20,000 nucleotides of DNA from an uncultured virus (IMG/VR IMGVR_UViG_3300012933_000168) (IMGVR_UViG_3300012933_000168); one strand, 5' to 3'; counted from the first letter of the stretch, positions 1,154-20,000 are shown. The notes: generated by a model not told the origin, from the sequence alone. Program-made: numbers and translations.

Positions 1154-2936
1154 AGTTCAAGGGCAACTCCATGCCCCACTTGGGTCGGATGCGCATACAC
1201 ATCTCGACGTATTCCACAGCAGTCTTAACTTCCTCGGTCTTGACGATACAAGCCACCGCGTCATGCACAGTCATCACAACGTGGTACTTCTTGGCAATCA
1301 TCAGCATTTGGTCGCCGATGATGATACGCGCTAGGGCTTGGCATACGTTTTCGATTACCTTCCCGCCGTAGATGCGGTTGGGGATAACGGCTCGGCCCTT
1401 CTTGGTGTCATACACAATCTCGGTTTTGCCTGTTTCCTCGTCGGCCTTCTGACGCAGGTTGGGGTAGCGGATATACAAGCCGTTGGGCAAGCGGATGCCG
1501 TCCTTACCTTCGATCTTCAAGATGCCGTCACGTCCTAACATTGTTAGCTGGCCCCTAAGAATCGCCTCCAGCGCCGTACCGGCTTCTTTCCACAGCTTCG
1601 TGATTCGTGGGTATGTAGCTCGATATGTGTCAATGATTCGTTTCGCCTCATCGAGCTCGACGATGACGCCGAAGTTCTTAAGCTGAGCTTGAAATTTCGC
1701 CGCGCCCATGCCGTACCCCGCCCCAAGAATCGTTGTCTTTCCAACAAAGCGCTCATCTTTCGATATATCCGCAACGTCCTTGCCGTAGATAGCCGATGCC
1801 ATGATTTTGTAAACGTCCTCGCCACGGTCAAATGCCTCCACTAAGTCGTCTTGCCCAGCTAGCCATGCTAGCGTACGGGCTTCAATTTGTGATGAGTCAG
1901 AGTCGATCATCAGATACCCCGCAGGTGCGAGGATAGATTTCTTCAGCGCTGACCCCCTCGGCAAGTTCTGAAGATTAAGTTTGTCATCGCCCCCCCATCG
2001 CCCAGTGTGGGCGGCGTAATAACGGAGGGGAACTGGCATGGCACCTCGCTGAGCAATCCCAATAAAACGTTCAGTTCTCGACTCCTCAATCGTAGATTTC
2101 GTACCCAGTCGGGCGGCGACGAGTGCTTGTACGGACGGATTCGGATGTTCGAGAAGTTCTTTGAACGCCTCGTCTGTCTTTGCGAAGGCATAGGTTTCCT
2201 TTCCAGTAGCAGGGCTCTTCTTCATCGGTGGCGCGACACCGAGTACCGTGAGTAGCTCGGCGAACTTGGGGTTGCTCATCAGCGTGTCTTTGTCGAAGTT
2301 CTCCAGCAGCTCAGCTTTGCGTTGCTGTTCTTTCAGCAGATGGACGCGCAACATACTCTCATCCAGTTGCAAGACTGGCTCGGTAAACATACGGATGGTC
2401 AGGTCGATCAAGCGCAACTCAGTCGGCGGGAAGTCTTGACTCATGCAGTTGAACAAGTCCCATGTCAGGCGCACGTCGTTCTTACAGTACTCACCATACT
2501 GGGCTAGCTGTTCCTTGGGGAAGTCAGTGCGGCGCAATCCCTTCGCATCGTTGACCTCAGTGCCCTTCTCGCCGATGCCGTAGAACTCCGCCAGAACCTT
2601 CAGGCTACCGCCTACGTTCGTACCGTGAAGAGCGCGGCCCATAGATAGCGTGTCAAGCCAACCCTTCGGCTTGATTTGGAAATGCTCGGTCAGGATGAAC
2701 CCGTCGAACATAGCGTTGTGCGCCAGCGCAAGGGAGTTCTCCCAATCGAATTGCTTGAGGAACGCATACGTACCGATGGAGTCACCTGTGTACCACTCAG
2801 GTTCACCGTCATTGACCTGCACAGCCACACCCACAACTTCAAAGCGTGGGTCGCGTACGTATTCCTCAGTAGTCTGTTTAGAGAAGCCAAGGTCGGCCCC
2901 ATACGCCGACTCAAAGTCAATAGTAATAATATCCAT
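1116..2936 (-). CDS. polA: phage DNA polymerase, family A (3'-5' exonuclease + polymerase, no 5'-3' exonuclease)
   Basis: ExoI DFES, ExoII HNAMFD, ExoIII YCKND; HTGRW; NLQNLP; motif A DSSQIEAR; motif B RFVGKTTILGAGYG; motif C VHDA. Confidence 0.96.
   Translation of the reverse strand: MDIITIDFESAYGADLGFSKQTTEEYVRDPRFEVVGVAVQVNDGEPEWYTGDSIGTYAFLKQFDWENSLALAHNAMFDGFILTEHFQIKPKGWLDTLSMGRALHGTNVGGSLKVLAEFYGIGEKGTEVNDAKGLRRTDFPKEQLAQYGEYCKNDVRLTWDLFNCMSQDFPPTELRLIDLTIRMFTEPVLQLDESMLRVHLLKEQQRKAELLENFDKDTLMSNPKFAELLTVLGVAPPMKKSPATGKETYAFAKTDEAFKELLEHPNPSVQALVAARLGTKSTIEESRTERFIGIAQRGAMPVPLRYYAAHTGRWGGDDKLNLQNLPRGSALKKSILAPAGYLMIDSDSSQIEARTLAWLAGQDDLVEAFDRGEDVYKIMASAIYGKDVADISKDERFVGKTTILGAGYGMGAAKFQAQLKNFGVIVELDEAKRIIDTYRATYPRITKLWKEAGTALEAILRGQLTMLGRDGILKIEGKDGIRLPNGLYIRYPNLRQKADEETGKTEIVYDTKKGRAVIPNRIYGGKVIENVCQALARIIIGDQMLMIAKKYHVVMTVHDAVACIVKTEEVKTAVEYVEMCMRIRPKWGMELPLNCESGYGESYGDC
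1535..1547. repeat. 13-bp palindrome CTAACATTGTTAG inside polA (encodes LTML)
   Basis: Exact match read from the sequence. Confidence 0.95.
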
Positions 2937-4741: not shown

Positions 4742-4754
4742 CTAACATTGTTAG
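4742..4754. repeat. 13-bp palindrome, intergenic, extended by GGG/CCC arms (4739-4757)
   Basis: Exact match; 5 bp from a TTGACA. Confidence 0.95.
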
Positions 4755-6141: not shown

Positions 6142-6614
6142 TACATCTTCTCCTTGATAGGCCGCATCCGTTTGGCGCGGTACTCCTGCTCTACTATCTT
6201 CATCGCCAGCTCCATGTCACGCACCGTGGTGTTCTCCAGTTGTGCGTCGTGAATTTCCATGACTAGGTTCATAGCCTTGAGTTCCTCGGCCTTCAATATG
6301 AAGCGGCCACTCTCCACACCGCGTTTACCGACAGCGTGAAGTGCATCCAAGCCAGCCTTAATTTCGTCTTTCCAATCGTGGCCAAGCTCAGGGCGCAACA
6401 TGATGTACGCCTCACACATATTGAACGCGCCAATCAGTACGTCAATAGTCGCTACCGTTGCATCACCACGACGCAATATGTCCATCGCATCGTGGTTCTT
6501 GATTCGCAGGTCGGCACTCAGTGACACACTTGTAAACGGTTTCATGCCAGCCAGCACCCAGCTCACTGGGTCAGGGAACACACCCTTGGGGCGATACTTA
6601 GAACGCTTTCTCAT
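6141..6614 (-). CDS. hypothetical phage protein (157 aa, basic N-terminus MRKRSKYRPK)
   Basis: Coupled ORF on the coding strand. Confidence 0.8.
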   Translation of the reverse strand: MRKRSKYRPKGVFPDPVSWVLAGMKPFTSVSLSADLRIKNHDAMDILRRGDATVATIDVLIGAFNMCEAYIMLRPELGHDWKDEIKAGLDALHAVGKRGVESGRFILKAEELKAMNLVMEIHDAQLENTTVRDMELAMKIVEQEYRAKRMRPIKEKM

Positions 6615-8621: not shown

Positions 8622-8800
8622 TTGAATTTCCTCGTTAGGTTTTTGTCAGCCCACTCTGTGAACTTCTTGTCTGTGTTTGCTATCTTGCTGGCGCTCTTTG
8701 GCGGCGGTATCTTCCTCGGCTTCGGCTTGGGTTTCGGTTTAACCAACTCCCCGTTCTCGTACTTAGGCCAAGGTGCGTTAGGTGCTAGTACTGTTTTCAT
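8618..8800 (-). CDS. basic Pro/Lys-rich protein (60 aa, MKTVLAPNAPWP...)
   Basis: AAGGAG SD before ATG 8800; KPKPKPKP low-complexity stretch. Confidence 0.62.
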   Translation of the reverse strand: MKTVLAPNAPWPKYENGELVKPKPKPKPRKIPPPKSASKIANTDKKFTEWADKNLTRKFK

Positions 8801-9020
8801 TCTTCTCCTTGTGTTCAGTGGCCATACGGCGGTACTGAGAAATGTTGTTCTTGATTGCGCGGGGGTCGGCACTTGAGTTCTTACTGATGATCTGAGCTTG
8901 TGGAAAGTCAGCGAACACAATAAGAAAGTGCGAACCGTTGCGTGGATGGACTTCAGTTATCGTCAGTCCAGCCTTCTCGTACTCAACTAGTTGCTTGCGT
9001 AGGACTTTCGGGAACTTCAT
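8778..9020 (-). CDS. HicA-like (dsRBD-fold) small protein
   Basis: helix-G-x(6-8)-GSH-strand pattern and DPRAIKN...YRR C-terminal helix; ATGA-coupled start at 9020. Confidence 0.5.
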   Translation of the reverse strand: MKFPKVLRKQLVEYEKAGLTITEVHPRNGSHFLIVFADFPQAQIISKNSSADPRAIKNNISQYRRMATEHKEKNENSTST

Positions 9021-9220
9021 ACCACTAGCTTCACCAATATGCCGATGACTAACAATGTTAGGGCGTAGAGAATAATGTCGTTGATAGTCGGCGCGGGGCG
9101 CTTGTGCGCAATCCACCATTCACCTAGGCGGTCTTGGGGGAACGCCTCTTCTAGTGTGCGTGGGTAGCATCGGGTTGTAGGCCAACCTTCAAATTTGGGG
9201 TTTGGTTTCTTCATCTTCAT
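9017..9220 (-). CDS. small membrane-anchored phage protein (TTRCYPRTLEEAFP motif + C-terminal TM)
   Basis: ORF track; hydrophobic C-terminus. Confidence 0.7.
   Translation of the reverse strand: MKMKKPNPKFEGWPTTRCYPRTLEEAFPQDRLGEWWIAHKRPAPTINDIILYALTLLVIGILVKLVV
9049..9061. repeat. 13-bp palindrome CTAACAATGTTAG (inverted centre), intragenic
   Basis: Exact match. Confidence 0.95.
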
Positions 9221-10022
9221 TCTCCAAAATCAACACAAAACTTTCATCATTAACTCGGCAACCTATACCAGTTACCATCGCTTCCTTCTCCACCAGCTTG
9301 AGCATACCTAGCTTGCCGCGTAGCTCGACGGGTAAAGTCACATCATCATACAGTTGTACATTGTCACGTATCTTAACAATATATTTGCTGTCTGCCAATA
9401 CCACCAATGCAGTTCTGTTGTTCTGAAACGCCTTAATAGTTTCGGCAATCGTCACCATGTCGGCTCGGACATCCTCTAACATTGTTAGGTGTTCCAGCAT
9501 AGCTGTATTGTGGTTGTGCTTCAGCTCCAAGATGTACTGACTCATGTTGGCTTTTGCCCACTTATACAAGTCGTTCTCAATCGGACGCTCATGCTCACGT
9601 TGCTTGCTTTGGTTGCGATAGCTTTGATTCTCCAGTACACCCTCGGCTACCACTAACGCTTTGTTGACACGCTCGGATAGATTCATCGGGCCGAATGTCT
9701 TCTTCACTCGCAGGTACGCTTTGTCTACCTTGTCGGTGTGGTATGCGTTCTTACGTGTGTTGTTAGCACCAATGCGGTCGTTACGCACAAACAGCTTCTG
9801 ACTACTGCCGTACCACTCAGAGCCGATATAGCCCAGCTCCTCACTACCATCTACCACACGGAATGTACGGAACCCCACCACCTCGACAGTCCATAGTGGA
9901 TGCTTGGTCGCCACTTCCCACGCCAGCATCTTGGCCTCGCCATGTAGCTGGTTCTCGTCAATCGGTTTCTCATTCTTACCCATACGCACGTTGGGCAACT
10001 TCATCAATTCAATAGCCATCAT
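9189..10022 (-). CDS. hypothetical phage protein (277 aa)
   Basis: Long ORF with GAGG SD; no motif recognised. Confidence 0.82.
   Translation of the reverse strand: MMAIELMKLPNVRMGKNEKPIDENQLHGEAKMLAWEVATKHPLWTVEVVGFRTFRVVDGSEELGYIGSEWYGSSQKLFVRNDRIGANNTRKNAYHTDKVDKAYLRVKKTFGPMNLSERVNKALVVAEGVLENQSYRNQSKQREHERPIENDLYKWAKANMSQYILELKHNHNTAMLEHLTMLEDVRADMVTIAETIKAFQNNRTALVVLADSKYIVKIRDNVQLYDDVTLPVELRGKLGMLKLVEKEAMVTGIGCRVNDESFVLILENEDEETKPQI
9476..9488. repeat. 13-bp palindrome, intragenic (encodes LTML)
   Basis: Exact match. Confidence 0.95.
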
Positions 10023-10417: not shown

Positions 10418-11268
10418 TCAAACTTCTGCAAAATCGCATCTACCTTGTTCTTCAAGTTCTCACGAACCATCGAACTCTCTTTGATGTACTCAATGTCAGC
10501 ACCGAGCATCGTCTGCTCCAACTGCTTACGTGCTTCCTCCAGCTTGGGGTCGTTCGTAATGTTCATCTTGTCCAGCAAGCCACACAAGTCCACAGCATTG
10601 GTCACGAGCGAGTCGTGGTAACGCTTCTTGGTATCGCCAAACTCATCCTCGTCCTTCAGCTTCTCTGACATGGCGGTCAACACACTGTGCAGTCGCTCCC
10701 ATGGGGTACGCATAGCCTCGGCCAATCGCTCGTCGAACTTGGCTTCATAGTTAGACTTCATCTCCTCTAACTCATTCGCTGATATGTCCAAGCGAAAGTC
10801 ACCAGACTCAGGTATCGGGTCAATCGCCATACGGAAACCGAACTTCATCTGCACCTCTGCAATGTCAGGGTAGTCACTCGCTCGGTACATCGTGCCCAAG
10901 TGCGTCTGTGCTTCGCTAACCAACTGCGGGTAGGCGATAAAGAAGTTACTGCACATCTGCTTGAACTGTGCCTCGTAGTTGTTCATCGTCTGCTTGTATT
11001 CCATGAACAGCTTGGTCGGCAACAGTCGCTGGCCCTTGTCGGCCCAAGGCATCGTGTGCTGGTTGTGATAGAGGCGTATACGCGCCGCCAGCTTCTCAAT
11101 GTCTTTGCGTAGTGACGTACCTGCAAACAGATTCTTCCTTGTCTGCGAGGCATCACGTACTGCTGACGCATTGGCATTTACTGTGTCCGTCATCTCTCGG
11201 TCAACCTTGTTGGCTGGCCACACACTTATGTTCAGTTCCACTAGAACCGCGCTTGATGCAATACTCAT
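10411..11268 (-). CDS. DUF3150-like phage protein
   Basis: LVELNISVW...K.D, TLPW-like TMPWADKGQRLLP, DYP...V..KF, NITNDPKL motifs; this type of protein often occurs near AAA/vWA genes. Confidence 0.7.
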   Translation of the reverse strand: MSIASSAVLVELNISVWPANKVDREMTDTVNANASAVRDASQTRKNLFAGTSLRKDIEKLAARIRLYHNQHTMPWADKGQRLLPTKLFMEYKQTMNNYEAQFKQMCSNFFIAYPQLVSEAQTHLGTMYRASDYPDIAEVQMKFGFRMAIDPIPESGDFRLDISANELEEMKSNYEAKFDERLAEAMRTPWERLHSVLTAMSEKLKDEDEFGDTKKRYHDSLVTNAVDLCGLLDKMNITNDPKLEEARKQLEQTMLGADIEYIKESSMVRENLKNKVDAILQKFEW

Positions 11269-11729
11269 TTCATTTCTCCTTCAGGTTTCATATCTAACAA
11301 CTTCAACTGTCGTGCAATGTCGCACACTTCCTCTTTCACCCACTCGAACGTGCGGTAGGTATCTCTCATGTGATGGCTAATGTCTGTCTCGGTGTACTCC
11401 ATCAACGTAGCCACCAGCTTCGGGCTAAAGTCCCCTGCGTGTGAGCAGTCGAACCCAACCACCCACTCGTCTGTCTCCTTGTCTTTCTCCGAGTACGTCA
11501 GCCCACCATGCGCTTCAATACCCCTATCGTTGAGCCAGTCGTAGTTGAACCCGTACGCCTTGTGCCCCCTTGGTATAGCCACGTACCCGTTCAGGTGTCC
11601 GAGCGTTCCATGTCGCCACACTGTGCACTTGTACCCAGTCAGGTCATGTACCCACTCCTCGTTGTCAGGCTCGTGTTCCCACGGGCGGTCGCTTATCAGC
11701 AACTTCATCTTCTGTTCTGCATCTAACAT
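11265..11729 (-). CDS. conserved phage protein (GHLNGYV...HGGLTY...GFDCSHAGD family)
   Basis: Recognisable widespread phage motif set; the ATG lies inside a palindrome copy. Confidence 0.82.
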   Translation of the reverse strand: MLDAEQKMKLLISDRPWEHEPDNEEWVHDLTGYKCTVWRHGTLGHLNGYVAIPRGHKAYGFNYDWLNDRGIEAHGGLTYSEKDKETDEWVVGFDCSHAGDFSPKLVATLMEYTETDISHHMRDTYRTFEWVKEEVCDIARQLKLLDMKPEGEMK

Positions 11730-11735
11730 TGTTAG
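11723..11735. repeat. 13-bp palindrome at a stop/start junction
   Basis: Exact match; contains TAA (11732-11734) and ATG (11729). Confidence 0.95.
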
Positions 11736-11968
11736 CCTCCTTCATGTTTCGCGTTACTCAATAGCATCTTCACCATTCCGTGTGCTACTTCTTCACCTTC
11801 GTAGATACCCATAGGTTGCTTCTCTCCTCTCAATCCAATGGCGTACTTGTGCGAGTCGGTGATGAAGTCGCGTTGCCACTGCACCCAAAAGCCAATCTGA
11901 CCCAATGCCATGTTTGCGGATACCCACTTCATCTCGTGCTCATGCTCGTCTCTACTACTTATAGCCAT
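11732..11968 (-). CDS. small hypothetical protein (78 aa, MAISSRDE...)
   Basis: GGAGGAG SD before ATG 11968; the TAA stop lies inside a palindrome copy. Confidence 0.7.
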   Translation of the reverse strand: MAISSRDEHEHEMKWVSANMALGQIGFWVQWQRDFITDSHKYAIGLRGEKQPMGIYEGEEVAHGMVKMLLSNAKHEGG

Positions 11969-12216
11969 CACTCCTCCTTCTTCAGTAGCTTCATGTAGTT
12001 CTTCATTTCTTTCTCGTTCAACCCCCACGCCACACGCATCCCATCCTTGCCGTAGATAGTCCACTTCCCATACTTGCGCTTGGAGTAGTAGTCGGGGTTG
12101 TACTTGTACCATTGCTCTTGGAACACGTTGGCCACCGTACCCCGCATACTCCGCGTCAATGCCTCGGCGTACTGCTTGCCAATCCTCTCCAGCATTTCAT
12201 CTTCTAGCGTACTCAT
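11968..12216 (-). CDS. small hypothetical protein (82 aa)
   Basis: Coupled ORF; C-terminal VAWGL.EKEM...MKLL motif. Confidence 0.7.
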   Translation of the reverse strand: MSTLEDEMLERIGKQYAEALTRSMRGTVANVFQEQWYKYNPDYYSKRKYGKWTIYGKDGMRVAWGLNEKEMKNYMKLLKKEE

Positions 12217-12217
12217 A

Positions 12218-12442
12218 TCAATCCTCGGGCTTTCCCGCCAGCTTGTACATGGCGTAGGTGTCTCTGCTAATCAGCTTCGCGTTCATTTGCTCCTCCAGCA
12301 TAAAGATGTGGTGTGTCGCCCCTGTCGCTCCGTTGTACTTGCATCGGTACTTCTCCGCCTTCTCAAGTATCTTCATCAACGCCATCGCATCCTCGACTGG
12401 CAACACCATGTCCCCGTAGGGCATCGTCACAATCATCGGCAT
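12218..12442 (-). CDS. small hypothetical protein (~74 aa)
   Basis: Start at 12442 follows GGAAGG; the ORF track extends to 12463. Confidence 0.68.
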   Translation of the reverse strand: MPMIVTMPYGDMVLPVEDAMALMKILEKAEKYRCKYNGATGATHHIFMLEEQMNAKLISRDTYAMYKLAGKPED

Positions 12443-12443
12443 A

Positions 12444-12689
12444 TCAATCCTTCCATAATTCAAACAACTTCAACGTACCCTTCAGTCCATCGAACGTCAG
12501 GTTCCTGTGCACTTCATCCGTGCCGTCAAGCCTTACCCATCCACCCTTCGCGGGTTTCAATCGCCCTATGAAGTGAAAGCGCAGGTTGTAACGCCACGGC
12601 CTCCACCACACTCGGCTGACTGACCACGCATATAACTGAGATGGATGGTCGGGCGGCACCATGTACATATCCCCGCACTTAATCTTCAT
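12444..12689 (-). CDS. small hypothetical protein (81 aa)
   Basis: ORF directly after the vWA gene. Confidence 0.65.
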   Translation of the reverse strand: MKIKCGDMYMVPPDHPSQLYAWSVSRVWWRPWRYNLRFHFIGRLKPAKGGWVRLDGTDEVHRNLTFDGLKGTLKLFELWKD

Positions 12690-12691
12690 GT

Positions 12692-13906
12692 TTAGACTTC
12701 GAGGTAGATTGTTTTACCGTTGTCGGACACTGCGCTTGTGTTGCCACCACTGATGACCCACATAGTCGGCGCTGTCCACTCGCTACCCCAGTTCGGTACG
12801 TAGCCGTCAGTCAGCACAATCACACACTCGGGCACGATGTTCTCGTCTTTCAGGTACTGAGATACACAGCTTGGGTCTGTACCACCACCGCCTCGTGGCT
12901 TGGTCGAGCTAACAATGTTAGATACATCACCACCCTCGTACTTCTCATGCCCTGCCACATGGCCGTCCCAGTAAATCAAGTCCACCACCTCGGGGCTGAC
13001 TTCCTCGGCGATACCCTGTACCTCGGATAAGAACTCGGCAAGCTCAGGCCCACCGATAGAACCCGATGTGTCGATAGCCACAACCAAGTGACCAACCTTC
13101 TCGCCAATCATGCTGGGCATATACATACCTGTGCTGAGGAATCGGCGGTTCACACGACGCCATGAGCTTGTGTCTTTGTTAGAACACGTAGCCTTAACGA
13201 AGTCGCGCAACACTTCACGCCAATCAATCTTGGGTGCAAGTAAGTCTTCCAGTTCACGGTCGAGCATCCCACCGCCTTTGCCAGCGTTCTTCTGATGTGC
13301 AATCAAGCCTTGACGAATCGCTTGGTCAATCTCACGCGCCAACTCTTTCTTCTCGTCCTCGGTCAGGTTCTCAGCGCCTTCCCAATCATGTTCATCGAAG
13401 CCGTCACCACCGCCACCGTTGGGGTCGTTCTTCTTCTCCTCTTTGAGAATGTCGTAGACCTGCTTGGTGTTCATGCCACGGAATCGTTCGTCAACCAAGC
13501 CCATGAAGTCACCCTTCTTAGCCTTGGGGTGTCCTGTGTCCTCGGCGTAGCGTGGCATAGCGATGACTGACTCGTTCGGGTCTAAGTCCTTGAGCATCAA
13601 GTTAATCACGTAGTCCATAGCTTGATTAGCCAACTGCGCGTCCTCGGTGTGCAACTTAGTCCACGTTGTCAGGTGGCGGTACATCTTGTGCCCAGCCTCA
13701 TGCGCAATCACAAATGCCAGTTCCCTGTCGCTCATCTTCTTAACGAACGCACGGCCATACATCTCGTCGCGTCCGTTGGTACACGCTGTCGGAATGTCAT
13801 CGCGTACATGGGTCTTGCCCACCATCATCACGCCTTGTAGTAGTGCGAACTTGGGGTTGCGCATTACTGTGATTTTTGCTTTCTGCAATTTACGTTCTTC
13901 TAACAT
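12692..13906 (-). CDS. DUF2201-like protein: N-terminal HExxH metallopeptidase-like domain + C-terminal vWA domain
   Basis: TACTNG, HEAGH, ANQAMDYVIN; MIDAS DTSGS, GGGGTD, LTDG. Confidence 0.9.
   Translation of the reverse strand: MLEERKLQKAKITVMRNPKFALLQGVMMVGKTHVRDDIPTACTNGRDEMYGRAFVKKMSDRELAFVIAHEAGHKMYRHLTTWTKLHTEDAQLANQAMDYVINLMLKDLDPNESVIAMPRYAEDTGHPKAKKGDFMGLVDERFRGMNTKQVYDILKEEKKNDPNGGGGDGFDEHDWEGAENLTEDEKKELAREIDQAIRQGLIAHQKNAGKGGGMLDRELEDLLAPKIDWREVLRDFVKATCSNKDTSSWRRVNRRFLSTGMYMPSMIGEKVGHLVVAIDTSGSIGGPELAEFLSEVQGIAEEVSPEVVDLIYWDGHVAGHEKYEGGDVSNIVSSTKPRGGGGTDPSCVSQYLKDENIVPECVIVLTDGYVPNWGSEWTAPTMWVISGGNTSAVSDNGKTIYLEV
12909..12921. repeat. 13-bp palindrome (inverted centre) inside the vWA domain (SNIVS)
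   Basis: Exact match. Confidence 0.95.
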
Positions 13907-13912
13907 TGTTAG
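13900..13912. repeat. 13-bp palindrome over the vWA gene start codon
   Basis: Exact match; ATG 13906 with AAGGAG directly upstream. Confidence 0.95.
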
Positions 13913-13920
13913 CTCCTTGT

Positions 13921-14295
13921 TTAAAAATCTGAATTGATACTTCTAGCCACACTCAACCGATAGTCGGAATAGTCCGAACGGTTCTGCTCAATGTCATCGG
14001 TGTCCTCACCGATACGCACGAACTCGTAAGCCCAGCGCCTCTCGCTAGCTTCCTCTCCATCGGCTAACTCCAAGAAGTTAGATGCGAACCTGTTGAACGC
14101 TTGCACATCGGGGTAGCTGTCGTACCACTTCCATCCATCGCCTTCAAACATATACCCCGCATACCTACCGTTGTCTATTGGATGTAGGTCGCCCTTCAAC
14201 TCGTCGGGAAAGTTCTCGTCCACGTACAGTTTCAGTACTGGCGCGTGTTCCTTCGGCGCATAGAACGCCGCCTTTATGTCACTGCGATAGCCCAT
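13921..14295 (-). CDS. hypothetical phage protein (MGYRSD...KWY..YPDV...F.RIGED family)
   Basis: GAGGAGG SD before ATG 14295. Confidence 0.78.
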   Translation of the reverse strand: MGYRSDIKAAFYAPKEHAPVLKLYVDENFPDELKGDLHPIDNGRYAGYMFEGDGWKWYDSYPDVQAFNRFASNFLELADGEEASERRWAYEFVRIGEDTDDIEQNRSDYSDYRLSVARSINSDF

Positions 14296-14518
14296 CGTTT
14301 TCCTCCTCAATACTGTTTAACAAAATACACATAGCATCGGCCTTGTCCTTCGTCTCATACTTACCCATGCCGATGTTGTCGAACTTGCGTCTGTCGCATA
14401 CCTCCCACCCCTTGAGTTGCAGGTATCCTGTTACTGAGTCAGGCTCAGTTACCCATCGTGTGAAGTACCTGTTCAAGTTCCCATGTCCGTCTGTGTACTC
14501 GTCTCTCATGGAATCCAA
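14279..14518 (-). CDS. small hypothetical protein (79 aa)
   Basis: ORF on the coding strand with short overlaps to its neighbours. Confidence 0.65.
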   Translation of the reverse strand: MDSMRDEYTDGHGNLNRYFTRWVTEPDSVTGYLQLKGWEVCDRRKFDNIGMGKYETKDKADAMCILLNSIEEENDGLSQ

Positions 14519-14862
14519 CTCGACTTCTGCTTGTATGCCCTTGCCAATACTTCAGCCTCGTTAATCAACATGAACAACGTAGCCTCCATCTGTGCAGGGT
14601 CGGATGTTTCCAGCAGTACCTCGCGCTTCTTTTTCGGTAGGTCGGTCTGCGTGTGTTGCGCTGTCGGTGTCTCTTGCTCCCACTTGACCAACACGCATCG
14701 GTACTCGGGGTGCAATGCGCTGTACAACATACGGCGCTCAATGTTTAGTTGATAGCCCCACATCATGCGGTTCAAGTACTTGAACATATCGTTGCACTTC
14801 TCCCATTCGAGCGGCCAGTCCATGTGCTTGTTCTTGTGGTTGTTCATCTGTGCATATAACAT
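14506..14862 (-). CDS. hypothetical protein (118 aa, MLYAQMNNHK...)
   Basis: Start reassigned to ATG 14862 inside the palindrome variant, 2 nt after the upstream TAA, with a GGAGAG SD. Confidence 0.72.
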   Translation of the reverse strand: MLYAQMNNHKNKHMDWPLEWEKCNDMFKYLNRMMWGYQLNIERRMLYSALHPEYRCVLVKWEQETPTAQHTQTDLPKKKREVLLETSDPAQMEATLFMLINEAEVLARAYKQKSSWIP

Positions 14863-14868
14863 TGTTAG
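14856..14868. repeat. palindrome variant ATAACATTGTTAG (1 mismatch) at a stop/start junction
   Basis: 12/13 match; TAA 14865-14867 and ATG 14862. Confidence 0.9.
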
Positions 14869-15068
14869 TCTCTCCACATCGTTAGCTTCTTGTACTCTTT
14901 CACCTGTCGGCGTACCTGTATGTGAATAGCCACAACCTCCGCCTCGTTGCCGAGTTGTTTTTGTAGGGCATCCACAACGTGTTTCCACTCCCCTGCTTGA
15001 GTGTGGCTATCCATAATCAACGTCGCCGCATCACGCACGAGTTGGTCGGTGTCAATCGTCACTAACAT
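14865..15068 (-). CDS. small hypothetical protein (67 aa) bounded by palindromes at both start and stop
   Basis: ATG in the 15062 copy and TAA in the 14856 copy. Confidence 0.72.
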   Translation of the reverse strand: MLVTIDTDQLVRDAATLIMDSHTQAGEWKHVVDALQKQLGNEAEVVAIHIQVRRQVKEYKKLTMWRD

Positions 15069-15074
15069 TGTTAG
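15062..15074. repeat. 13-bp palindrome over a start codon
   Basis: Exact match; ATG 15068. Confidence 0.95.
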
Positions 15075-15081
15075 TCTCCTA

Positions 15082-15099
15082 GGCGGGGTTTCCCCCGCC
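15082..15099 (-). other. GC-rich RNA hairpin with GAAA tetraloop (GGCGGGG-GAAA-CCCCGCC)
   Basis: Perfect 7-bp stem just after the AAA gene stop; no U-tract, so not a clear intrinsic terminator. Confidence 0.6.
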
Positions 15100-15106
15100 G
15101 TTCTCG

Positions 15107-16177
15107 TTACAGCAAGTCTTGGTTCTTAGCGACCCAGTCGGCGAACGCCTTAGCGCCGAACGCGATGGATTGTTTCGATGGTGTCTTAGCAATGTTGATT
15201 GCGAACACGGCTTGCCACTCTGCGTCGAAGCGTTCCAAGTACTCCATGAATGGGGCGATGTTGGTCTTGTCGATACGAGCGATTGCACCGAAGATAACGA
15301 TGGCACAAGCGCCAGGACTTGTCGGTACTTTCGTATGCTTAGGGTCTTTGATGGTGTCCTCCCATGATGGAAGTTGGTCAGAGAACTCGATGTACGCTTG
15401 CATATCACGAGCCGCCGCTTCACCAATCGCACCACTGAGCGCCGCGATAACAGAGTCAGAGTCATTCTGCTTACGGGTACTAACAATGTTAGATGCCGTT
15501 GCCAGTGAACGAGGAGACACGAACGCAACCTGTGGCTTCTTGGGGTTGAAGATGTACGGGTTGTCGCCTTGTCCTGCGTCGGTATAGCTAGCCATTGCGT
15601 GAGGGAATCGGTTAACCCACGCCAACACCTCAGCCGCGATGCCGTTGTTCATGCCCCACTCAATCCATTCCTCAGATGTTGGCTTGGCAATAGTCACGGG
15701 CACGATACGGTTCAAGCTGTGCGCCTTCATGTTGTCGCCCACACCATCGGTCGATAAGTTACCAGTCAGGAAACAGATTGTGTCCTTGGGCAATGGGATG
15801 TCACCGAGTCGTGGGTTTGCCTTCTCAAGCATGGGGTGCAACATATTCTTAACTGGGTCAGCGCCTTTGCTGAACTCGTCAAGCATGATGACCATTGGCT
15901 TGCCTGTATGAATACCGAAACGTGCGTTGGGGTAGTAGCGGGTCGTCTTAGTCTCGTGGTCAATCACGGGCATTGCAATGTCGCCCAAGTCCATGTTCGG
16001 TACGTCGATGTACGCATGGTCGTAGCCTAGTGGTGCGGCGATTGCTTCTAGCAGAGAAGACTTACCAATTCCGGGCTCACCTCGTAGCATGAAGCGGGTA
16101 CTTGGGTTGGTGCGAATCAGGTTCGCGGCTTGCTTCAATGTGATGGTCTTACCAAATTTAACTTCTGACATTTTCAT
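15107..16177 (-). CDS. MoxR/AAA_5-like AAA+ ATPase
   Basis: Walker A GEPGIGKS, Walker B IMLDE, sensor TGN, R-finger SLNR, SPRS sensor 2. Confidence 0.9.
   Translation of the reverse strand: MKMSEVKFGKTITLKQAANLIRTNPSTRFMLRGEPGIGKSSLLEAIAAPLGYDHAYIDVPNMDLGDIAMPVIDHETKTTRYYPNARFGIHTGKPMVIMLDEFSKGADPVKNMLHPMLEKANPRLGDIPLPKDTICFLTGNLSTDGVGDNMKAHSLNRIVPVTIAKPTSEEWIEWGMNNGIAAEVLAWVNRFPHAMASYTDAGQGDNPYIFNPKKPQVAFVSPRSLATASNIVSTRKQNDSDSVIAALSGAIGEAAARDMQAYIEFSDQLPSWEDTIKDPKHTKVPTSPGACAIVIFGAIARIDKTNIAPFMEYLERFDAEWQAVFAINIAKTPSKQSIAFGAKAFADWVAKNQDLL
15480..15492. repeat. 13-bp palindrome (inverted centre) inside the AAA gene (SNIVS)
   Basis: Exact match. Confidence 0.95.
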
Positions 16178-16219
16178 TTCCTTCGTTGATTACTGCTAAC
16201 GCAGTTGTTATCTCTATGC

Positions 16220-16232
16220 CTAACATTGTTAG
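16220..16232. repeat. 13-bp palindrome in the AAA operon 5' leader (extends to 17 bp, 16218-16234)
   Basis: Exact match GCCTAACATTGTTAGGC. Confidence 0.95.
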
Positions 16233-16285
16233 GCGACTCGTTTAAGTTCACTTGCTGGTGGGCGATAGTTATTCGCCAAGCCTTT

Positions 16286-16314
16286 ATTGTATCACAAATA
16301 CTTGACAATGTCAA
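16286..16314 (-). promoter_or_regulatory. sigma70-type promoter TTGACA-17 nt-TACAAT driving the AAA/vWA operon
   Basis: -35 at 16309-16314 and -10 at 16286-16291 with exact 17-nt spacing, in the largest intergenic gap. Confidence 0.82.
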
Positions 16315-16326
16315 GACCTTTGCTCC

Positions 16327-16674
16327 TCAATTCCTACCTTTGCTCTCGCTAACATTGTTAGGTTGTTCGTACCTGTTGAACTCCTCAGCCCACCATGCGT
16401 GTTCTAAGAAGAATTGGTTCTTGTGTTTCGGATATACCCTGCGTAGGCTAGTCACAGCACTCCGCATCAAGTCCTCTACATTCAGCATCACTCGGCGGCA
16501 GTCTTGCAACTGCTCGGGTGTCGTGTCGGGGTGACGCATCAACTTGAGCACACAGCTATCAGCCTTGGCCTTGTACTGCATAGTCTCTCGCCATATCTGC
16601 TTACACCTAACCAACTTCTCAGTCGGCGTAGTTGTATCTCGTGGCATCCCTGTTGGTGTGTTGGTATCTAACAT
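16327..16674 (-). CDS. hypothetical protein (115 aa)
   Basis: ATG inside palindrome 16668; a second palindrome lies near the 3' end. Confidence 0.72.
   Translation of the reverse strand: MLDTNTPTGMPRDTTTPTEKLVRCKQIWRETMQYKAKADSCVLKLMRHPDTTPEQLQDCRRVMLNVEDLMRSAVTSLRRVYPKHKNQFFLEHAWWAEEFNRYEQPNNVSESKGRN
16349..16361. repeat. 13-bp palindrome about 35 bp upstream of the -35 box
   Basis: Exact match. Confidence 0.95.
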
Positions 16675-16680
16675 TGTTAG
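16668..16680. repeat. 13-bp palindrome at a stop/start junction
   Basis: Exact match; TAA 16677-16679 and ATG 16674. Confidence 0.95.
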
Positions 16681-16865
16681 AGCCCATGCTTCTTCTTGAA
16701 CCTGTCGAACTGCCCAAAGATTCCCTCTCGCTCCTCGGGGTGCATGAACAGTATCTTGAGCATCACGCCTAAGCTATTCGCCTTCTCCCTCTCACGGAAG
16801 TAGAAGATAGTCGCGCCCACCGCCCAGCCCAGCAGGAAACATTCCGCATCACTCAGTCCAAACAT
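16677..16865 (-). CDS. small protein with N-terminal hydrophobic segment (62 aa)
   Basis: GGAGG SD; the TAA lies inside palindrome 16668. Confidence 0.7.
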   Translation of the reverse strand: MFGLSDAECFLLGWAVGATIFYFREREKANSLGVMLKILFMHPEEREGIFGQFDRFKKKHGL

Positions 16866-16866
16866 A

Positions 16867-17883
16867 TCAATCCTCCTCAGTCATTACGTAGTCGGCATAC
16901 TTGTGCGTAGGTACTTTGCCCTCGGGCAACGCCACCTTCTTGAACACCTTGTCGCTGAACATCTTGAACAGAATCCTGTCCAACACCTTCTCGAATTGGT
17001 CAACACCCAACGTCACCTGTGACTCCATGCTGTCGCGCCAATACAAGCTCTGTTCCTGAACAAACAGAATGTTGAACGCAATCCAATAGTTTTGGTGGCG
17101 TGCGTTGTCATCTTGGTCATTCCGTACTAGGTCGAAGAACTCAGCGGTTGCCTGTCGGTAGTTACTCCACGCCTCATCCTTGTCCTCGGGTCGGTAGTAC
17201 TTGGGCTTCTCGGTTATCTTCCACTTGTTGCCCACATCGGGTCGGCATCCGCCATTTACATCCTGAGACTTGCCAAACACCTCAATCAATTCCCCATACG
17301 TTGTTTTGACCACAGAGAAACCCTCACGCCCCCAAACGCCTTGAATCTCCTCACCCTTGAGCTTGATGACTCCAGCCAAGTAGTCACGGAATTGGCTCAC
17401 GGACTTCCTAACATTGTTAGAGTCCTTGCGGCTCACTCGGTAGTCGTAAAGCGTCTGCGTTTCTTTTGGCAACCATCCGCCGTTTGCCGTGCGAACTAAT
17501 GCCAGTTCCCCCTTGGCGGGTAGCATCGCCTTCGCGTTCGTACCTGAGAAGCCCAAGACCACCTGACCCTTGACTCGGTACGCACCCACGCCACTCAGCA
17601 CTCGGCTAATGAATTGGCACGTCGATGCACTTGGCCAGTTGTCTATGTTGATGATGACCTCATCCTCCACCGTGAACTTAATCACGGGCGTTTGGTACAG
17701 CACACACTCGATTGCGTTTGTCCATACGTTCTTACGGATAGAGTAGGTGTCCACGTCACGACGCTCACCCAGTGGTCGCTTGTCCTCAGCCCTGCCCTTG
17801 ATTGGCTTGCTGTTGTCGAACTTCTTTACTGCCTCGGCGTAGTCGCGTACCTTCGGCACTCTCATTACTGTTGCGTATCCCAT
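16867..17883 (-). CDS. hypothetical phage protein (338 aa)
   Basis: Long ORF with AGGAG SD; no motif recognised. Confidence 0.85.
   Translation of the reverse strand: MGYATVMRVPKVRDYAEAVKKFDNSKPIKGRAEDKRPLGERRDVDTYSIRKNVWTNAIECVLYQTPVIKFTVEDEVIINIDNWPSASTCQFISRVLSGVGAYRVKGQVVLGFSGTNAKAMLPAKGELALVRTANGGWLPKETQTLYDYRVSRKDSNNVRKSVSQFRDYLAGVIKLKGEEIQGVWGREGFSVVKTTYGELIEVFGKSQDVNGGCRPDVGNKWKITEKPKYYRPEDKDEAWSNYRQATAEFFDLVRNDQDDNARHQNYWIAFNILFVQEQSLYWRDSMESQVTLGVDQFEKVLDRILFKMFSDKVFKKVALPEGKVPTHKYADYVMTEED
17408..17420. repeat. 13-bp palindrome, intragenic (SNNVR)
   Basis: Exact match. Confidence 0.95.
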
Positions 17884-17887
17884 TTCA

Positions 17888-18085
17888 TTACTCCTTTAAA
17901 AGTTTCTCGTATTTCTCTACCCACTCAATCGCTTGCTCGTTCGTTGGTATGCCCTCGGCGACGTACTCCCACTTGTGCCCGTTGGCAAACCTCCGAGCTT
18001 GTGGCTCCCATTGGTACCTGCGCTTGACCATCAACTCTCCGTCATGCCACCTCACGATGCACCAGTCAGGCTCCCTCTCTAACAT
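17888..18085 (-). CDS. small protein, putative paralog family (65 aa)
   Basis: ATG in palindrome 18079; WCIVR...EYVAEG...A...KLLKE. Confidence 0.72.
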   Translation of the reverse strand: MLEREPDWCIVRWHDGELMVKRRYQWEPQARRFANGHKWEYVAEGIPTNEQAIEWVEKYEKLLKE

Positions 18086-18091
18086 TGTTAG
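18079..18091. repeat. 13-bp palindrome over a start codon
   Basis: Exact match; ATG 18085. Confidence 0.95.
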
Positions 18092-18098
18092 CCCTCCT

Positions 18099-18386
18099 TC
18101 ATGGGAACATATCCCAAGCAGATGTGCGGTCGACTAACGTGTGGTCTGCTACCGCGTCGTAATCCACCTCGAAGCGCATCATGTAGTCATGCCGCGCCAG
18201 CTTCGCCATTGCAATCAGCCTCTCCTTGTCTGTGCCCTCGGCTACTATCTCGGCGGTGTCCTCGGTCTCGCCTCTGTCTTTGAGTTGGTTCCAACACCGA
18301 ACCGTTGTCTTGCTGGCTAGCCGTTTCAGGTACACCCTCGCATCTCCATCGGAGAAACTCACCAGCACATAATTCACCTTCTTCAT
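18099..18386 (-). CDS. small protein, putative paralog family (95 aa)
   Basis: YVLV...EIVAEGTDKERLIAMAKL; ATGA-coupled. Confidence 0.72.
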   Translation of the reverse strand: MKKVNYVLVSFSDGDARVYLKRLASKTTVRCWNQLKDRGETEDTAEIVAEGTDKERLIAMAKLARHDYMMRFEVDYDAVADHTLVDRTSAWDMFP

Positions 18387-18577
18387 ACGCTAGCCAGTGC
18401 AACCGTTGCCCTGTCTCGTAGTTGCATCATCAGCCCTTGCGGGTTGCGCCCTAGCTTCGCGGCCAGTTGGTACATGGCGTTGCGCTTGGCATTGTTCGGG
18501 TTGGTTGCTGTCGTGTACATCGTCAGGATTTCCCCTGCGTTGTTGACTGTCACCTTGAACTTGTACTTCTCTAACAT
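18383..18577 (-). CDS. small hypothetical protein (64 aa)
   Basis: ATG in palindrome 18571. Confidence 0.72.
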   Translation of the reverse strand: MLEKYKFKVTVNNAGEILTMYTTATNPNNAKRNAMYQLAAKLGRNPQGLMMQLRDRATVALASV

Positions 18578-18583
18578 TGTTAG
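18571..18583. repeat. 13-bp palindrome at a stop/start junction
   Basis: Exact match; TAA 18580-18582 and ATG 18577. Confidence 0.95.
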
Positions 18584-18780
18584 GTCTCCTCTGTTAATGC
18601 TTTGAATCTCATAATCTCCATCGTGTCGTCGCTCTCGGCGATAACCTCGGCTTCGTATGCCCCACGATAGAACGCTTTCTTTTGGAACTCATTCCATCTC
18701 TGCCTGTCCAGCATGAAACAATTCCCGTCCACCTTCATGCGTATCAGCACCCAAAACTTAGGCTTCTCGTGGTTGTCCAT
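18580..18780 (-). CDS. small protein, putative paralog family (66 aa)
   Basis: WVLIR...EVIAESDD...; TAA in palindrome 18571. Confidence 0.72.
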   Translation of the reverse strand: MDNHEKPKFWVLIRMKVDGNCFMLDRQRWNEFQKKAFYRGAYEAEVIAESDDTMEIMRFKALTEET

Positions 18781-18782
18781 GA

Positions 18783-18971
18783 TTACTCTCCCTTCGCCAG
18801 TTGCACGGCTTTCTTCGCCAGCTCGTAGTCGTCGGTCTCCATCATCACTTCGCGCTTATACAAGTCCGAGTCCTTGTGTGCTTGGTTTAGCTCCCACTGC
18901 CCTCTCGTGCGTATGAAGAACTCCACGTCCCCCACCGCACTTGTGCGTCGGTACACCACCCAATCCTTCAC
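18783..18971 (-). CDS. small protein, putative paralog family (~62 aa)
   Basis: Probable GTGA-coupled start at 18971 (ORF track starts at 19040); WVVYR...EVMMETDDYELAKKAVQL. Confidence 0.65.
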   Translation of the reverse strand: MKDWVVYRRTSAVGDVEFFIRTRGQWELNQAHKDSDLYKREVMMETDDYELAKKAVQLAKGE

Positions 18972-19165
18972 ACCCTTGGCCCTCGTACAAAGCTCCGCAA
19001 CTTCACCATCTGTATAGTGGCGTAGGTGTATCTGCGGCATAAGTCGGCGTAGTCGGCTTCGCTTGTGTCCTCGTTCATGGCTATCTCGGTGAACTGCCTC
19101 GTCATGTCTGCGTACGCCGCCTCCATGTTGAGGTACTCGGTAATCTGCTCTGCGTTAAATTTCAT
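18968..19165 (-). CDS. small hypothetical protein (65 aa)
   Basis: AAGGAG SD; coupled ORF. Confidence 0.65.
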   Translation of the reverse strand: MKFNAEQITEYLNMEAAYADMTRQFTEIAMNEDTSEADYADLCRRYTYATIQMVKLRSFVRGPRV

Positions 19166-19358
19166 CTTCGTTCTCCTTCGGTTCGTTCGCTAACTCTGTT
19201 AGGTTGATTGCATCTACTAGCGTATGCCCTCGACTAACAAACTCGCATTTGGTGTTGGGTGTCTCTTGCACGTAGTTGTCCCATGTAATGTCTCGGATGT
19301 ACTCCAGCAGTCGTCTTGCATACCCTGTTCGGTAAATCACGTACTCGGCTTCATCCAT
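19155..19358 (-). CDS. small protein, putative paralog family (67 aa)
   Basis: YVIYR...EFVSRGHT..DA..L..L. Confidence 0.7.
   Translation of the reverse strand: MDEAEYVIYRTGYARRLLEYIRDITWDNYVQETPNTKCEFVSRGHTLVDAINLTELANEPKENEDEI
19190..19202. repeat. degenerate copy CTAACTCTGTTAG (5-bp arms intact)
   Basis: 11/13 match. Confidence 0.5.
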
Positions 19359-19593
19359 CCTCTTGCTCCTTCATTAGTTTGAGCATCCCTCGCAGGACTT
19401 TCTCGGGCTGGTCGTCACACAAAATAGTGTGTGCTCTTATCCACGGCTTAGTAAGCAGGGGCTTGTACTCCATCCCGTACCCGCTGAACGGCCACTCATA
19501 CTTGACCAACGCATACTTGTACTTCTTGCGCCTCTTTTCCTGCTCACGCAGACTCTTATCTTTCCCCGCACCTTCGCTGCTTTTATCTAACAT
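19351..19593 (-). CDS. small protein, putative paralog family (80 aa, MLDKSSE...)
   Basis: Start reassigned to ATG 19593 inside palindrome 19587, with a GAGGAG SD. Confidence 0.7.
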   Translation of the reverse strand: MLDKSSEGAGKDKSLREQEKRRKKYKYALVKYEWPFSGYGMEYKPLLTKPWIRAHTILCDDQPEKVLRGMLKLMKEQEDG

Positions 19594-19599
19594 TGTTAG
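19587..19599. repeat. 13-bp palindrome at a stop/start junction
   Basis: Exact match; TAA 19596-19598 and ATG 19593. Confidence 0.95.
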
Positions 19600-19814
19600 G
19601 TCTCCTCGTCTCGGGCTAGTCTGCAAAACTGCTGGGCTTGTCTCAGGGTCAGGCCACGGGCCACAGTCGCATACTTCTCCTTGAGAATCGGCCAGTCACG
19701 GTCGTTCTGTGATACGTCCTCCCAGTGTTCGTACTCGTCTTGGCCCATGTGAACCAAACTACTCCCACTGTGATAAATCACGTACTTCTTACGCGTCTCT
19801 TGGGTCGCCGTCAT
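19596..19814 (-). CDS. small protein, putative paralog family (72 aa)
   Basis: YVIY...TVARGLT..QA..F..L; TAA in palindrome 19587; GGAGG SD. Confidence 0.72.
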   Translation of the reverse strand: MTATQETRKKYVIYHSGSSLVHMGQDEYEHWEDVSQNDRDWPILKEKYATVARGLTLRQAQQFCRLARDEET

Positions 19815-19998
19815 TTGTCAGCCTCCACATCATGTCCATCCTGTCGCGCAGGGGCTTGGTCTTCTCGGCATACAGTTCGTTGAGCGCCCTGCCCACTGTG
19901 TAGTTCACATCGTTGCGGCTCGTCATCATCGACGCCGCCTCACCTAGCATCGCGTCTAGGTCAATAATCAATCGGCCTAAGCCTTCGCCTTCGTACAT
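19789..19998 (-). CDS. small hypothetical protein (69 aa; start may lie outside the window)
   Basis: ORF track; on the coding strand. Confidence 0.6.
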   Translation of the reverse strand: MYEGEGLGRLIIDLDAMLGEAASMMTSRNDVNYTVGRALNELYAEKTKPLRDRMDMMWRLTNDGDPRDA

Positions 19999-20000
19999 AT

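Follow-up and report, generated by a model that had tools for sequence, protein, structure and literature searches.

Why would a phage write a palindrome across the start codons of its own genes, and is such a palindrome read on mRNA or on DNA? The question is raised by a stretch of 20,000 nt from an uncultured virus (IMG/VR IMGVR_UViG_3300012933_000168), called the window throughout. Its credible genes are all located on the minus strand, and it is an early/replication region of a phage. The palindrome CTAACA[A/T]TGTTAG (CTAACAATGTTAG/CTAACATTGTTAG) occurs in 16 exact copies (expected 0.00, from 200 shuffles). With one mismatch tolerated and the centre left free, there are 18 copies (expected 0.04). 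The site has a 6-1-6 geometry. Its density drops from 19.6 kb towards 1.5 kb; downstream of promoters the sites recur each 0.1–1.2 kb and become sparser with distance. Eight copies hold a start codon and ten do not. The palindromes are probably double-stranded DNA operators of a two-fold symmetric phage regulator, set in tight gene junctions because these are the cheapest places. The initial annotation of this DNA had favoured a translational operator and named a DNA site at junctions, placed there at least cost, as its alternative. This alternative fits the weak RNA hairpin, the copies away from starts, the copies upstream of promoters and the optional nature of the fusion to start codons.

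Palindromes fused to gene junctions

Eight copies read C-TAA-CA-ATG-TTA-G on the coding (minus) strand, to which all window features below belong; the copy at 14856 ends with T, not G. All coordinates given for them by the initial annotation were confirmed. The ATGs at 19593, 18577, 18085, 16674, 15068, 14862, 13906 and 11729 each open an open reading frame (ORF) of 64–404 codons, and the proteins begin, in this order, with MLD, MLE, MLE, MLD, MLV, MLY, MLE and MLD. In five cases, the TAA of the site is the stop codon of the upstream ORF (19596, 18580, 16677, 14865 and 11732). A GGAG or GAGG Shine-Dalgarno (SD) motif ends 0–3 nt before the palindrome in seven of the eight sites, the copy at 16668 being without. 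The left arm therefore serves as a spacer of 6–9 nt between SD and ATG.

Stop and start are both embedded at five junctions. At 19587..19599, TAA 19596-19598 ends ORF 19596-19814 and ATG 19591-19593 opens ORF 19351-19593, with the SD GAGGAG 2 nt upstream. The copy at 18571..18583, also with an upstream GAGGAG, ends ORF 18580-18780 and opens ORF 18383-18577. At 11723..11735, ORF 11732-11968 ends and ORF 11265-11729 begins next to an abutting GGAGG. The one-mismatch copy at 14856..14868 (last base T) ends ORF 14865-15068 and opens ORF 14506-14862. At 16668..16680, the stop of ORF 16677-16865 and the ATG of ORF 16327-16674 come together without an SD. The remaining three copies provide the start. 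The copy at 18079..18091 opens ORF 17888-18085 behind an abutting GGAGGG, and the upstream gene ends 8 nt earlier at a TGA. The copy at 15062..15074 opens ORF 14865-15068, with AGGAG 1 nt upstream. The copy at 13900..13912 opens the gene of a DUF2201/VWA protein (12692-13906), abutted by AAGGAG.

The persistence of the fusion was followed in 80 IMG/VR loci retrieved with the ATPase of the window (66–98% protein identity), in which genes were called by crude ORF rules. These loci share ancestry, and counts over them overstate the number of independent events. Alignments that begin at residue 1 with the same fused module were counted over distinct contexts. The module was present at the orthologous start in 40 of 59 contexts of the 13906 (VWA) gene, 14 of 15 of the 11729 gene, 8 of 9 of the 14862 gene, 2 of 2 of the 15068 gene and 2 of 7 of the 18577 gene. 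These alignments suggest that the fusion at orthologous junctions is old and stable. Orthologues of the 14862 gene even keep the degenerate last base of the palindrome, because the tyrosine codon demands it. No homologue of ORF 16327-16674 was found in the 80 loci; since this ORF is an orphan and lacks an SD, its start at 16674 is called solely from the stop-start adjacency.

The fusion is dispensable in the same comparison. Besides the 40 fused contexts of the 13906 gene, 10 have the site between the upstream stop and a separate SD-ATG and 9 have no site within 45 nt; the gene persists with the site ahead of the SD or without it. The orthologue of the 18577 gene in the related locus L004 begins with MEKH after a plain SD and the window protein with MLEKY, so that embedding costs one added leucine. 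Translational coupling through TAA-CA-ATG, as suggested in the initial annotation, is plausible, but this arrangement offers no more coupling than any closely abutting gene pair.

Copies at promoters and within genes

The ten copies away from starts are located at 17408, 16349, 16220, 15480, 12909, 9476, 9049, 4742, 1535 and 19190. Six are within ORFs and three adjoin promoters. The tenth is a one-mismatch copy, CTAACAGAGTTAG, at 19190..19202, towards the 3′ end of ORF 19155-19358, and could represent a degenerate site or a chance match. The intragenic copies are translated as S-N-N-V-R in a 338-aa ORF (17408..17420 in 16867-17883), S-N-I-V-S in the ATPase gene (15480..15492, T-centred) and, continued by a further S, in the VWA gene (12909..12921, T-centred), L-T-M-L-E in ORF 9189-10022 (9476..9488) and L-T-M-L-G in the gene of a family A DNA polymerase (1535..1547 in 1116-2936). 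A T-centred copy (9049..9061) lies within small ORFs at 8778-9214.

The two best promoters of the window are sigma-70-like, and three copies are within 60 bp of them. Promoter 16314-16286 (TTGACA-17-TACAAT, 11/12, TG-extended) is bracketed by two copies with centres 129 bp apart. One (16349..16361) precedes the −35 box by 35 nt and falls within the orphan ORF at its 3′ end. The other (16220..16232) is in the 5′ leader of the AAA ATPase gene, its stem lengthened by flanking G-C pairs. Promoter 4736-4709 (TTGACA-16-TATCAT, 11/12) is preceded by an intergenic copy (4742..4754) that is lengthened to a 19-bp palindrome (GGG...CCC) and stops 5 nt short of the −35 box. Relative to early sigma-70 promoters, the flanking copies are at about −65 and +50. 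In the ATPase promoter, the −35 region (16301-16315) itself forms a 15-bp palindrome, CTTGACATTGTCAAG, whose core TGACA-T-TGTCA resembles the CTGACA-type half-sites of relatives (see below) at 1-nt spacing.

Folding of the start sites

In the initial annotation, the palindrome was proposed to fold in mRNA as CUAAC-AAU-GUUAG, to hide the AUG and to act as a translational operator. Folding of 41 nt around each of the eight starts, compared with shuffled sequence, did not support this. The hairpin has a 5-bp stem and a 3-nt loop with about −2.4 kcal/mol. At seven of the eight starts it was no better than shuffles (z −0.01 to −1.0), and at several starts it differs from the minimum-energy fold. 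The A and U of the AUG are loop bases, and the start codon would thus be displayed, not hidden. Strong stems were found only at the non-start copies 16220 (−9.8 kcal/mol) and 4742 (−16.9 kcal/mol), because flanking G-C pairs extend them. Single changes compatible with wobble pairing were rare and without preference; hybrid sites were of the G.U type twice and of the A.C type twice.

Site variants and confinement to the early arm

The exact 13-mer is present in 63 of the 80 related loci, and the 13-mer or a variant in 79. One variant is the 14-bp CTAACA-NN-TGTTAG, with a centre of mostly AA or TT, also AT, AC, GA and others; another is CTGACA-NN-TGTCAG. The sole locus without any form (L058) covers mainly the region downstream of the ATPase. 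All five complete relatives (62–67 kb) have 9–16 exact 13-bp copies within about 9–16 kb, with one outlier in one genome; the IMG/VR class 'direct terminal repeats' defines contig ends, and the physical genome ends may differ. The array begins at a divergent promoter region, where a leftward block of large genes meets a rightward (plus-strand) block of small genes. A confined span that starts at the point of divergence assigns the element to one transcription arm. The window shows most of this early arm.

The record nearest to the window, L005 (G001), is of the CTGACA type. It has some of the window proteins at 93–100% identity and lacks others, and by this comparison the early arm is highly mosaic. 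The last 13 nt of L084 (45.9 kb, ending just after the first gene of the early arm) are the first 13 nt of L005 (19.3 kb). Joined, both would give about 65 kb, one genome length.

The variants also provide codons. The CTGACA form is used as C-TGA-CAA-ATG-TCA-G, with MS.. starts and TGA stops. Stop plus ATG are retained in three of four palindrome variants, as TAA..ATG in the 13-bp and 14-bp CTAACA forms and as TGA..ATG in the CTGACA form. The exception is the 14-bp form CTAACAATTGTTAG, which keeps the stop and lacks the ATG. It was start-fused in 0 of 14 copies, with the SD judged by eye; three of the 14 have a TTG-opened ORF of 43–77 codons, none with an SD by eye. TTG as a start codon in T-centred or AATT-centred copies was rejected, with only 2 T-centred copies having an SD and a long ORF. 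Fusion is opportunistic and arises whenever the local palindrome holds the needed codons, because it is optional at orthologous junctions and the ATG-less CTAACAATTGTTAG copies were not seen fused.

Dereplication of the sites in relatives yielded 574 sites, and a site was considered start-fused if its ATG opens an ORF of at least 35 codons. This was the case for 67 of 377 13-bp sites and 78 of 190 14-bp sites; 59–82% of the dereplicated copies are away from ATG-opened ORFs. Inside long ORFs are 138 of the 377 13-bp sites. The centre of the 13-bp copies that are not start-fused was, on the coding strand, A in 166, T in 153 and C or G in 10 cases. Overall strand sense is absent among the 13-bp sites, though subsets are skewed. 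The 269 one-mismatch variants are changed at the outermost base (177), the innermost base (70) or positions 2–5 (22), and cross-matches between 13-bp and 14-bp sites are suspected to account for part of the innermost changes. The core TAACA-N1-2-TGTTA is sequence-specific; the outer C/G is less strict.

Sites were rewritten in place. Within the VWA gene, the window has TCT AAC ATT GTT AGC TCG, containing CTAACATTGTTAG and read as SNIVSS. At the same place, L005 has TCT GAC ATT TGT CAG ACG, containing CTGACATTTGTCAG and read as SDICQT. The spacer in L005 is 1 nt longer, and an offset just downstream keeps the overall length. The change between site types at a fixed position suggests that these nucleotides are selected as DNA. 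Relatives of the 13-bp type have a counterpart of the internal ATPase copy (15480), at roughly the same distance from the start of the gene. L020, L080 and L005, of the 14-bp and CTGACA types, have a copy at the ATPase stop instead of the interior.

Candidate regulator

The candidate reader of the palindromes is the product of the first gene of the early arm, named 'family A' here and without annotation; we consider the chance that it is the reader to be about even, and the evidence is correlative. It is encoded by the first rightward gene, has 157–186 aa in most loci and was found in 42 of the 43 loci in which a large upstream minus-strand ORF was called by our ORF caller, a crude marker for coverage of the arm start. 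The protein collection contains 1382 relatives at E ≤ 0.001. All are unnamed or 'hypothetical' except one, and an informative name was not found among them. The nearest named Atlas clusters were DUF3102 (0.83) and a Streptomyces phage repressor c domain (0.81); both are below 0.9 and were kept as leads only.

Palindromes are located at the promoter of the family A gene. In 31 of 37 distinct relatives, a core site is 106–202 nt (mostly 136–171) upstream of the start codon, that is, about 22–43 nt upstream of the −35 box of the promoter, such as TTGAGT-17-TATAAT with TG in L036. The first copy lies upstream of the −35 box and is therefore not transcribed from the family A promoter. A second site is in the 5′ leader in 12 of the 37 relatives, and a site is at or just past the family A stop in 24. 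The ATPase promoter of the window shows the same bracket as the family A promoter in relatives, and the family A gene of L084 is preceded by a promoter nearly identical to it. An A/T-rich box, TTAATTATTGTT, is conserved after the first palindrome, just upstream of the −35 box of the first early promoter (L049 about 5150-5170, L036 about 6158-6175, and most loci inspected). It may be an UP element. The promoter scan marked site 1 plus the TTAATTATTGTT box as terminator-like in L036.

The family A tree has two deep clades of 30 and 17 rows. The clade of 30 goes with 13-bp sites, except L030, and the clade of 17 with 14-bp or CTGACA sites, except L023 and L060. L003 (G002), with CTAACA sites and an ATPase 97% identical to that of the window, has a family A protein of clade II. 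L002 and L004, with CTGACA sites and ATPases of about 98% identity, have a distinct subclade of clade I. L084 is the third member of this subclade, and its family A gene is flanked by three CTGACA sites, one of which gives the TGA stop. In a screen of the L004 ORFs that have relatives in at least 15 non-CTGACA loci, family A alone combined an identity of about 70% among CTGACA-type loci with one of at most 38% elsewhere.

The AlphaFold model of family A is all-helical (predicted local distance difference test score, pLDDT, 81), in which an acidic linker joins an N-domain of four helices to a C-terminal helical hairpin. A model with two copies reached a score of 0.78, compared with 0.00 for the best control; its runs had a contact agreement of at least 82% and a partner pLDDT of at least 79. 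In a benchmark, this mark was reached by 20 of 30 solved same-chain pairs and 1 of 23 single chains; the model used our own alignment, for which these counts hold roughly. The prediction supports a two-fold symmetric protein.

Two other candidates were rejected as general readers. Family B, about 170 aa long, has two ribbon-helix-helix-like repeats (weak matches to RHH_1 and CopG-like families) and is encoded near the arm start of CTGACA-type relatives (L002 3129-3641, L005 415-924). It was detected in only 5 of the 80 loci and is missing from L004 despite the 10 CTGACA sites of that locus. An extra gene of 71–77 aa directly follows the ATPase gene in the CTGACA loci L004 (8838-9053), L005 (about 6074-6295) and L002. 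It begins after one site and ends in the stop of the next, and a relative of 42% identity is present in L003 only. Its 71-aa product is specific to the CTGACA type, not universal, and without a DNA-binding signature by eye; it may still be a reader within the CTGACA type.

Proposed mechanism and alternative explanations

The copy number, confinement to the early arm, placement, conservation, in-place conversion of the sites and weakness of the RNA hairpin are direct results; we infer that a protein binds the palindromes, that family A may be this protein and that the effect may be repression. A phage-encoded symmetric regulator would read operators repeated along the early arm. As the regulator builds up, occupancy would repress initiation, block elongation or both across the whole early block. 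Binding would shut this block down, including autoregulation of the first gene. Looping between the bracketing sites, plus roadblocks, are possible means. Early genes abut or overlap, which leaves almost no free room for a 13-bp site. With TAA within the left arm and ATG spanning the centre, the palindrome can overlie a junction as stop, spacer and start. The price of embedding would be a leucine as residue 2 and a G as the first base of codon 3, and the eight 'ML' starts would be the result.

Several observations weigh against this reading. The 13-bp, 14-bp and CTGACA sites are mixed within L001, L002, L003, L008, L028 and L055. Away from ATG-opened ORFs, 14-bp sites lean to AA over TT on the coding strand (47 vs 25) and 13-bp junction copies to A over T (103 vs 64). 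This bias could stem from short ORFs that begin there or from a degree of strand sense. The intragenic 13-bp copies lean to T (A 47 vs T 86, p ~0.0009), probably because orthologous sites in the ATPase and VWA genes were counted repeatedly. An RNA or a DNA hairpin would be equally expected to show palindromic symmetry and the paired change from A-T to G-C. Family A is without a recognisable DNA-binding fold or domain: Pfam and PHROGs had no family for it, Foldseek found no match at E ≤ 0.001, and the best VIA match (Z 7.6), a helical KaiA domain over 82 residues with a root-mean-square deviation of 3.7 Å, is helical-bundle noise. The link between clades and site types, with the exceptions L023, L060 and L030, rests on few events, one half-site change and about two or three spacing changes. 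The regulator gene that belongs to the window lies outside it; the region upstream of the window was not recovered by searches of metagenome contigs with an exact 42-mer and of metagenome and viral contigs with the protein of ORF 19596-19814.

The strand-biased AA centres are also what a translational operator on the RNA could produce, in which a phage protein recognises CUAAC-loop-GUUAG on early transcripts and either blocks or couples initiation from the AUG within it. Such an operator would explain why 8 of the 18 window copies hold a start codon, directly after an SD except at 16668, why the fusion is kept at orthologous junctions (40 of 59, 14 of 15 and 8 of 9 contexts), and why stop plus ATG survive in three site variants. 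We nevertheless regard it as unlikely. The hairpin is at shuffle level with the A and U of the AUG exposed, ten of the 18 window copies and most copies in relatives are off ATG-opened ORFs, and copies are located inside genes and upstream of the first early promoter. T-centred copies, which lack an AUG, are as frequent as A-centred non-start copies (153 vs 166). The loop varies in sequence and length (AAU, AUU, AAAU, AUUU, AAUU and others), and the hybrids show no wobble-tolerant pattern. In the CTGACA-type L005, CTAACA-type fused starts persist (both of its two non-cognate sites are start-fused); the single non-cognate site of L004 looked unfused to a start. One protein may also read the RNA form of the site. 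A selected dual code, with the same 13–14 nt serving the regulator as a DNA site and, on mRNA, the ribosome as stop, spacer and start, is doubtful. If it were true, one protein, possibly binding the duplex and the nascent hairpin, could stop transcription and translation, about a third of the early genes would be shut off at the very same nucleotides, and the shared cassette would let phages swap early genes along with their control site.

A different role on the DNA level is improbable: the sites could pace or protect the first-entering DNA, load a partition or condensation system, or act in replication. It would agree with copies confined to one arm at a density that drops with distance. Intragenic positions are kept despite their coding cost, which suggests that spacing or density outweighs promoter proximity. 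Yet the most conserved copies bracket promoters, and no ParB, replication-initiator or similar domain was detected among the 52 window ORFs scanned. The identical SD, palindrome and ATG could also form a junction cassette that provides microhomology for gene shuffling between phages, reminiscent of the promoter-stem-loop cassettes of T4-type phages. The mosaic early arm, the mixture of site types within genomes and some alignment blocks bounded by a site (for example at 11735, 15076 and 16681) agree with this, but sites sit at gene borders, where mosaic joints occur regardless. High-identity blocks ended 9 times near 12 site-bearing junctions and 8 times near 40 site-free junctions; six of the nine ends are the conserved start of the ATPase gene. 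Shuffling leaves the intragenic copies, the copies upstream of promoters and the in-place conversion unexplained and is very improbable as the main role. Other explanations together retain a small share of the probability.

If the sites are DNA operators, this phage group controls its whole early block by one short palindrome and one uncharacterised regulator. A regulatory DNA word could then overlay protein-coding and translation signals in a genome without spare room, and could be rewritten in place, even within an enzyme gene, upon a change of specificity. The pair of operator and regulator would be compact and have natural specificity variants, potential orthogonal switches. For gene callers and motif hunters, it advises caution: an 'SD + ATG' motif may be a DNA operator.

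Comparison with known systems

Elements that a protein recognises and that contain the start codon of the gene under control are known from the MS2 coat protein at the replicase start and from the targets of T4 RegA. These operators are restricted to mRNA initiation regions. The palindrome, in contrast, also has copies of either orientation upstream of promoters and within genes, and forms a marginal RNA hairpin. The KorB operators of IncP plasmids are 13-bp palindromes in about a dozen copies, located at promoters, far from them or in genes, and KorB is a dimeric regulator of many operons from the ParB family. Dyad symmetry, the many copies and the promoter-proximal and distal positions are shared with the palindrome. 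It belongs to a phage early arm and not to a plasmid, and no ParB-like domain was found in the window proteins scanned or in family A.

Mycobacteriophages of Cluster A (L5 gp71-type) carry more than 20 copies of one 13-bp site at promoters and in short intergenic spaces, proposed to halt initiation and elongation along a long stretch of the genome (PMC9283540). These sites are asymmetric, oriented with transcription and spread genome-wide for lysogenic immunity, and their reader is a monomer with a helix-turn-helix (HTH) and a second domain (PMC9283540). The window resembles these stoperators by its 8 junction-fused copies and 3 copies within 60 bp of strong promoters. It differs by a palindromic site without strand sense (A 166, T 153), confinement to the early arm and a sequence that doubles as start and stop codons; family A, as candidate reader, is helical and unrelated to that monomer, and pairing is predicted for it. 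An HTH immunity repressor of the gp71 type was not seen by Pfam or PHROGs among the 52 window ORFs or in family A.

The Cluster O mycobacteriophages have 17-bp dyad repeats, 5′-TGTTCGGNNNCCGAACA (TGTTCGG-N3-CCGAACA), described with an unknown function (PMC4351075). There are dozens per genome, many intergenic and about one third in coding regions, without meaningful orientation. They are not closely linked to translation starts in that description and occur genome-wide, denser at one end (PMC4351075). Invariant arms, a variable A/T-rich centre, the lack of strand sense and a share of intragenic copies (138 of 377 here) are common features. The geometry is 6-1/2-6 here and 7-3-7 there, the half-sites differ, and 8 of 18 window copies hold a start codon. 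The Cluster O repeats are the nearest published look-alike.

The initial annotation named the start-associated sequence (SAS) of Cluster K mycobacteriophages, 5′-GGGATAGGAGCCC, as a non-palindromic analogue. This 13-bp repeat occurs only in the non-structural half of the genome and accompanies ATG starts; it contains the SD core, sits 3–7 bp before the start and sometimes includes the upstream stop (PMC3203893). It is non-palindromic, has one orientation and is found at a start in virtually every copy (PMC3203893). The length, the tie to ATG starts and the occasional upstream stop within the repeat are shared. In the window, however, the SD is outside and the ATG inside, both orientations occur, and most copies in relatives are off starts. 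The SAS is non-palindromic as stated, but a different thing that holds the SD and is located only at starts. Four motif strings of the palindrome were absent from the searchable literature in a search with the exact strings plus a few topic queries.

Other features of the window

Domain scans with Pfam and PHROGs took in 52 window ORFs. The library scans identified a MoxR-like AAA ATPase (15107-16177), the DUF2201 metallopeptidase/VWA protein (12692-13906), a His-Me/HNH endonuclease with a C-terminal HTH (2936-3424) and the family A DNA polymerase (1116-2936). Also encoded are a PD-(D/E)XK nuclease and a small protein resembling methyltransferases, and many ORFs of 55–125 codons are without any family. 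Rfam found no families and ARAGORN no tRNAs in the window. A G+C-rich hairpin, GGCGGGGGAAACCCCGCC on the coding strand, is located at 15082-15099, after the ATPase stop and before the SD-palindrome of the gene that follows; a T-run after it is absent on the coding strand.

The phage collection had no DNA-level matches to 11000-20000. Protein searches in this collection yielded distant relatives only, with at most 27% identity for the ATPase; the DNA polymerase is 37% identical to the enzymes of Rhizobium phage RHph_TM3_14A and of relatives of Pseudomonas phage KPP25. The pair of ATPase and DUF2201/VWA genes (12692-16177) represents the most conserved genes of the early arm. For the ATPase, the phage collection has distant relatives in numerous records of about 70–78 kb, with Pseudomonas, Vibrio, Erwinia, Acinetobacter and other hosts. 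Sequencing runs that share parts of the window are mostly aquatic and freshwater metagenomes, none with more than 31% of the sampled words and none listed as RNA.

The gene of the His-Me/HNH endonuclease abuts the DNA polymerase gene directly upstream. Among the six closest loci, it is present only in L006 (91%), and it looks like a free-standing homing endonuclease insertion. In the early arm of L002, the N-terminus of a 237-aa ORF (4338-5051) looks GIY-YIG-like on visual inspection, which would add another type of mobile endonuclease to this phage group.

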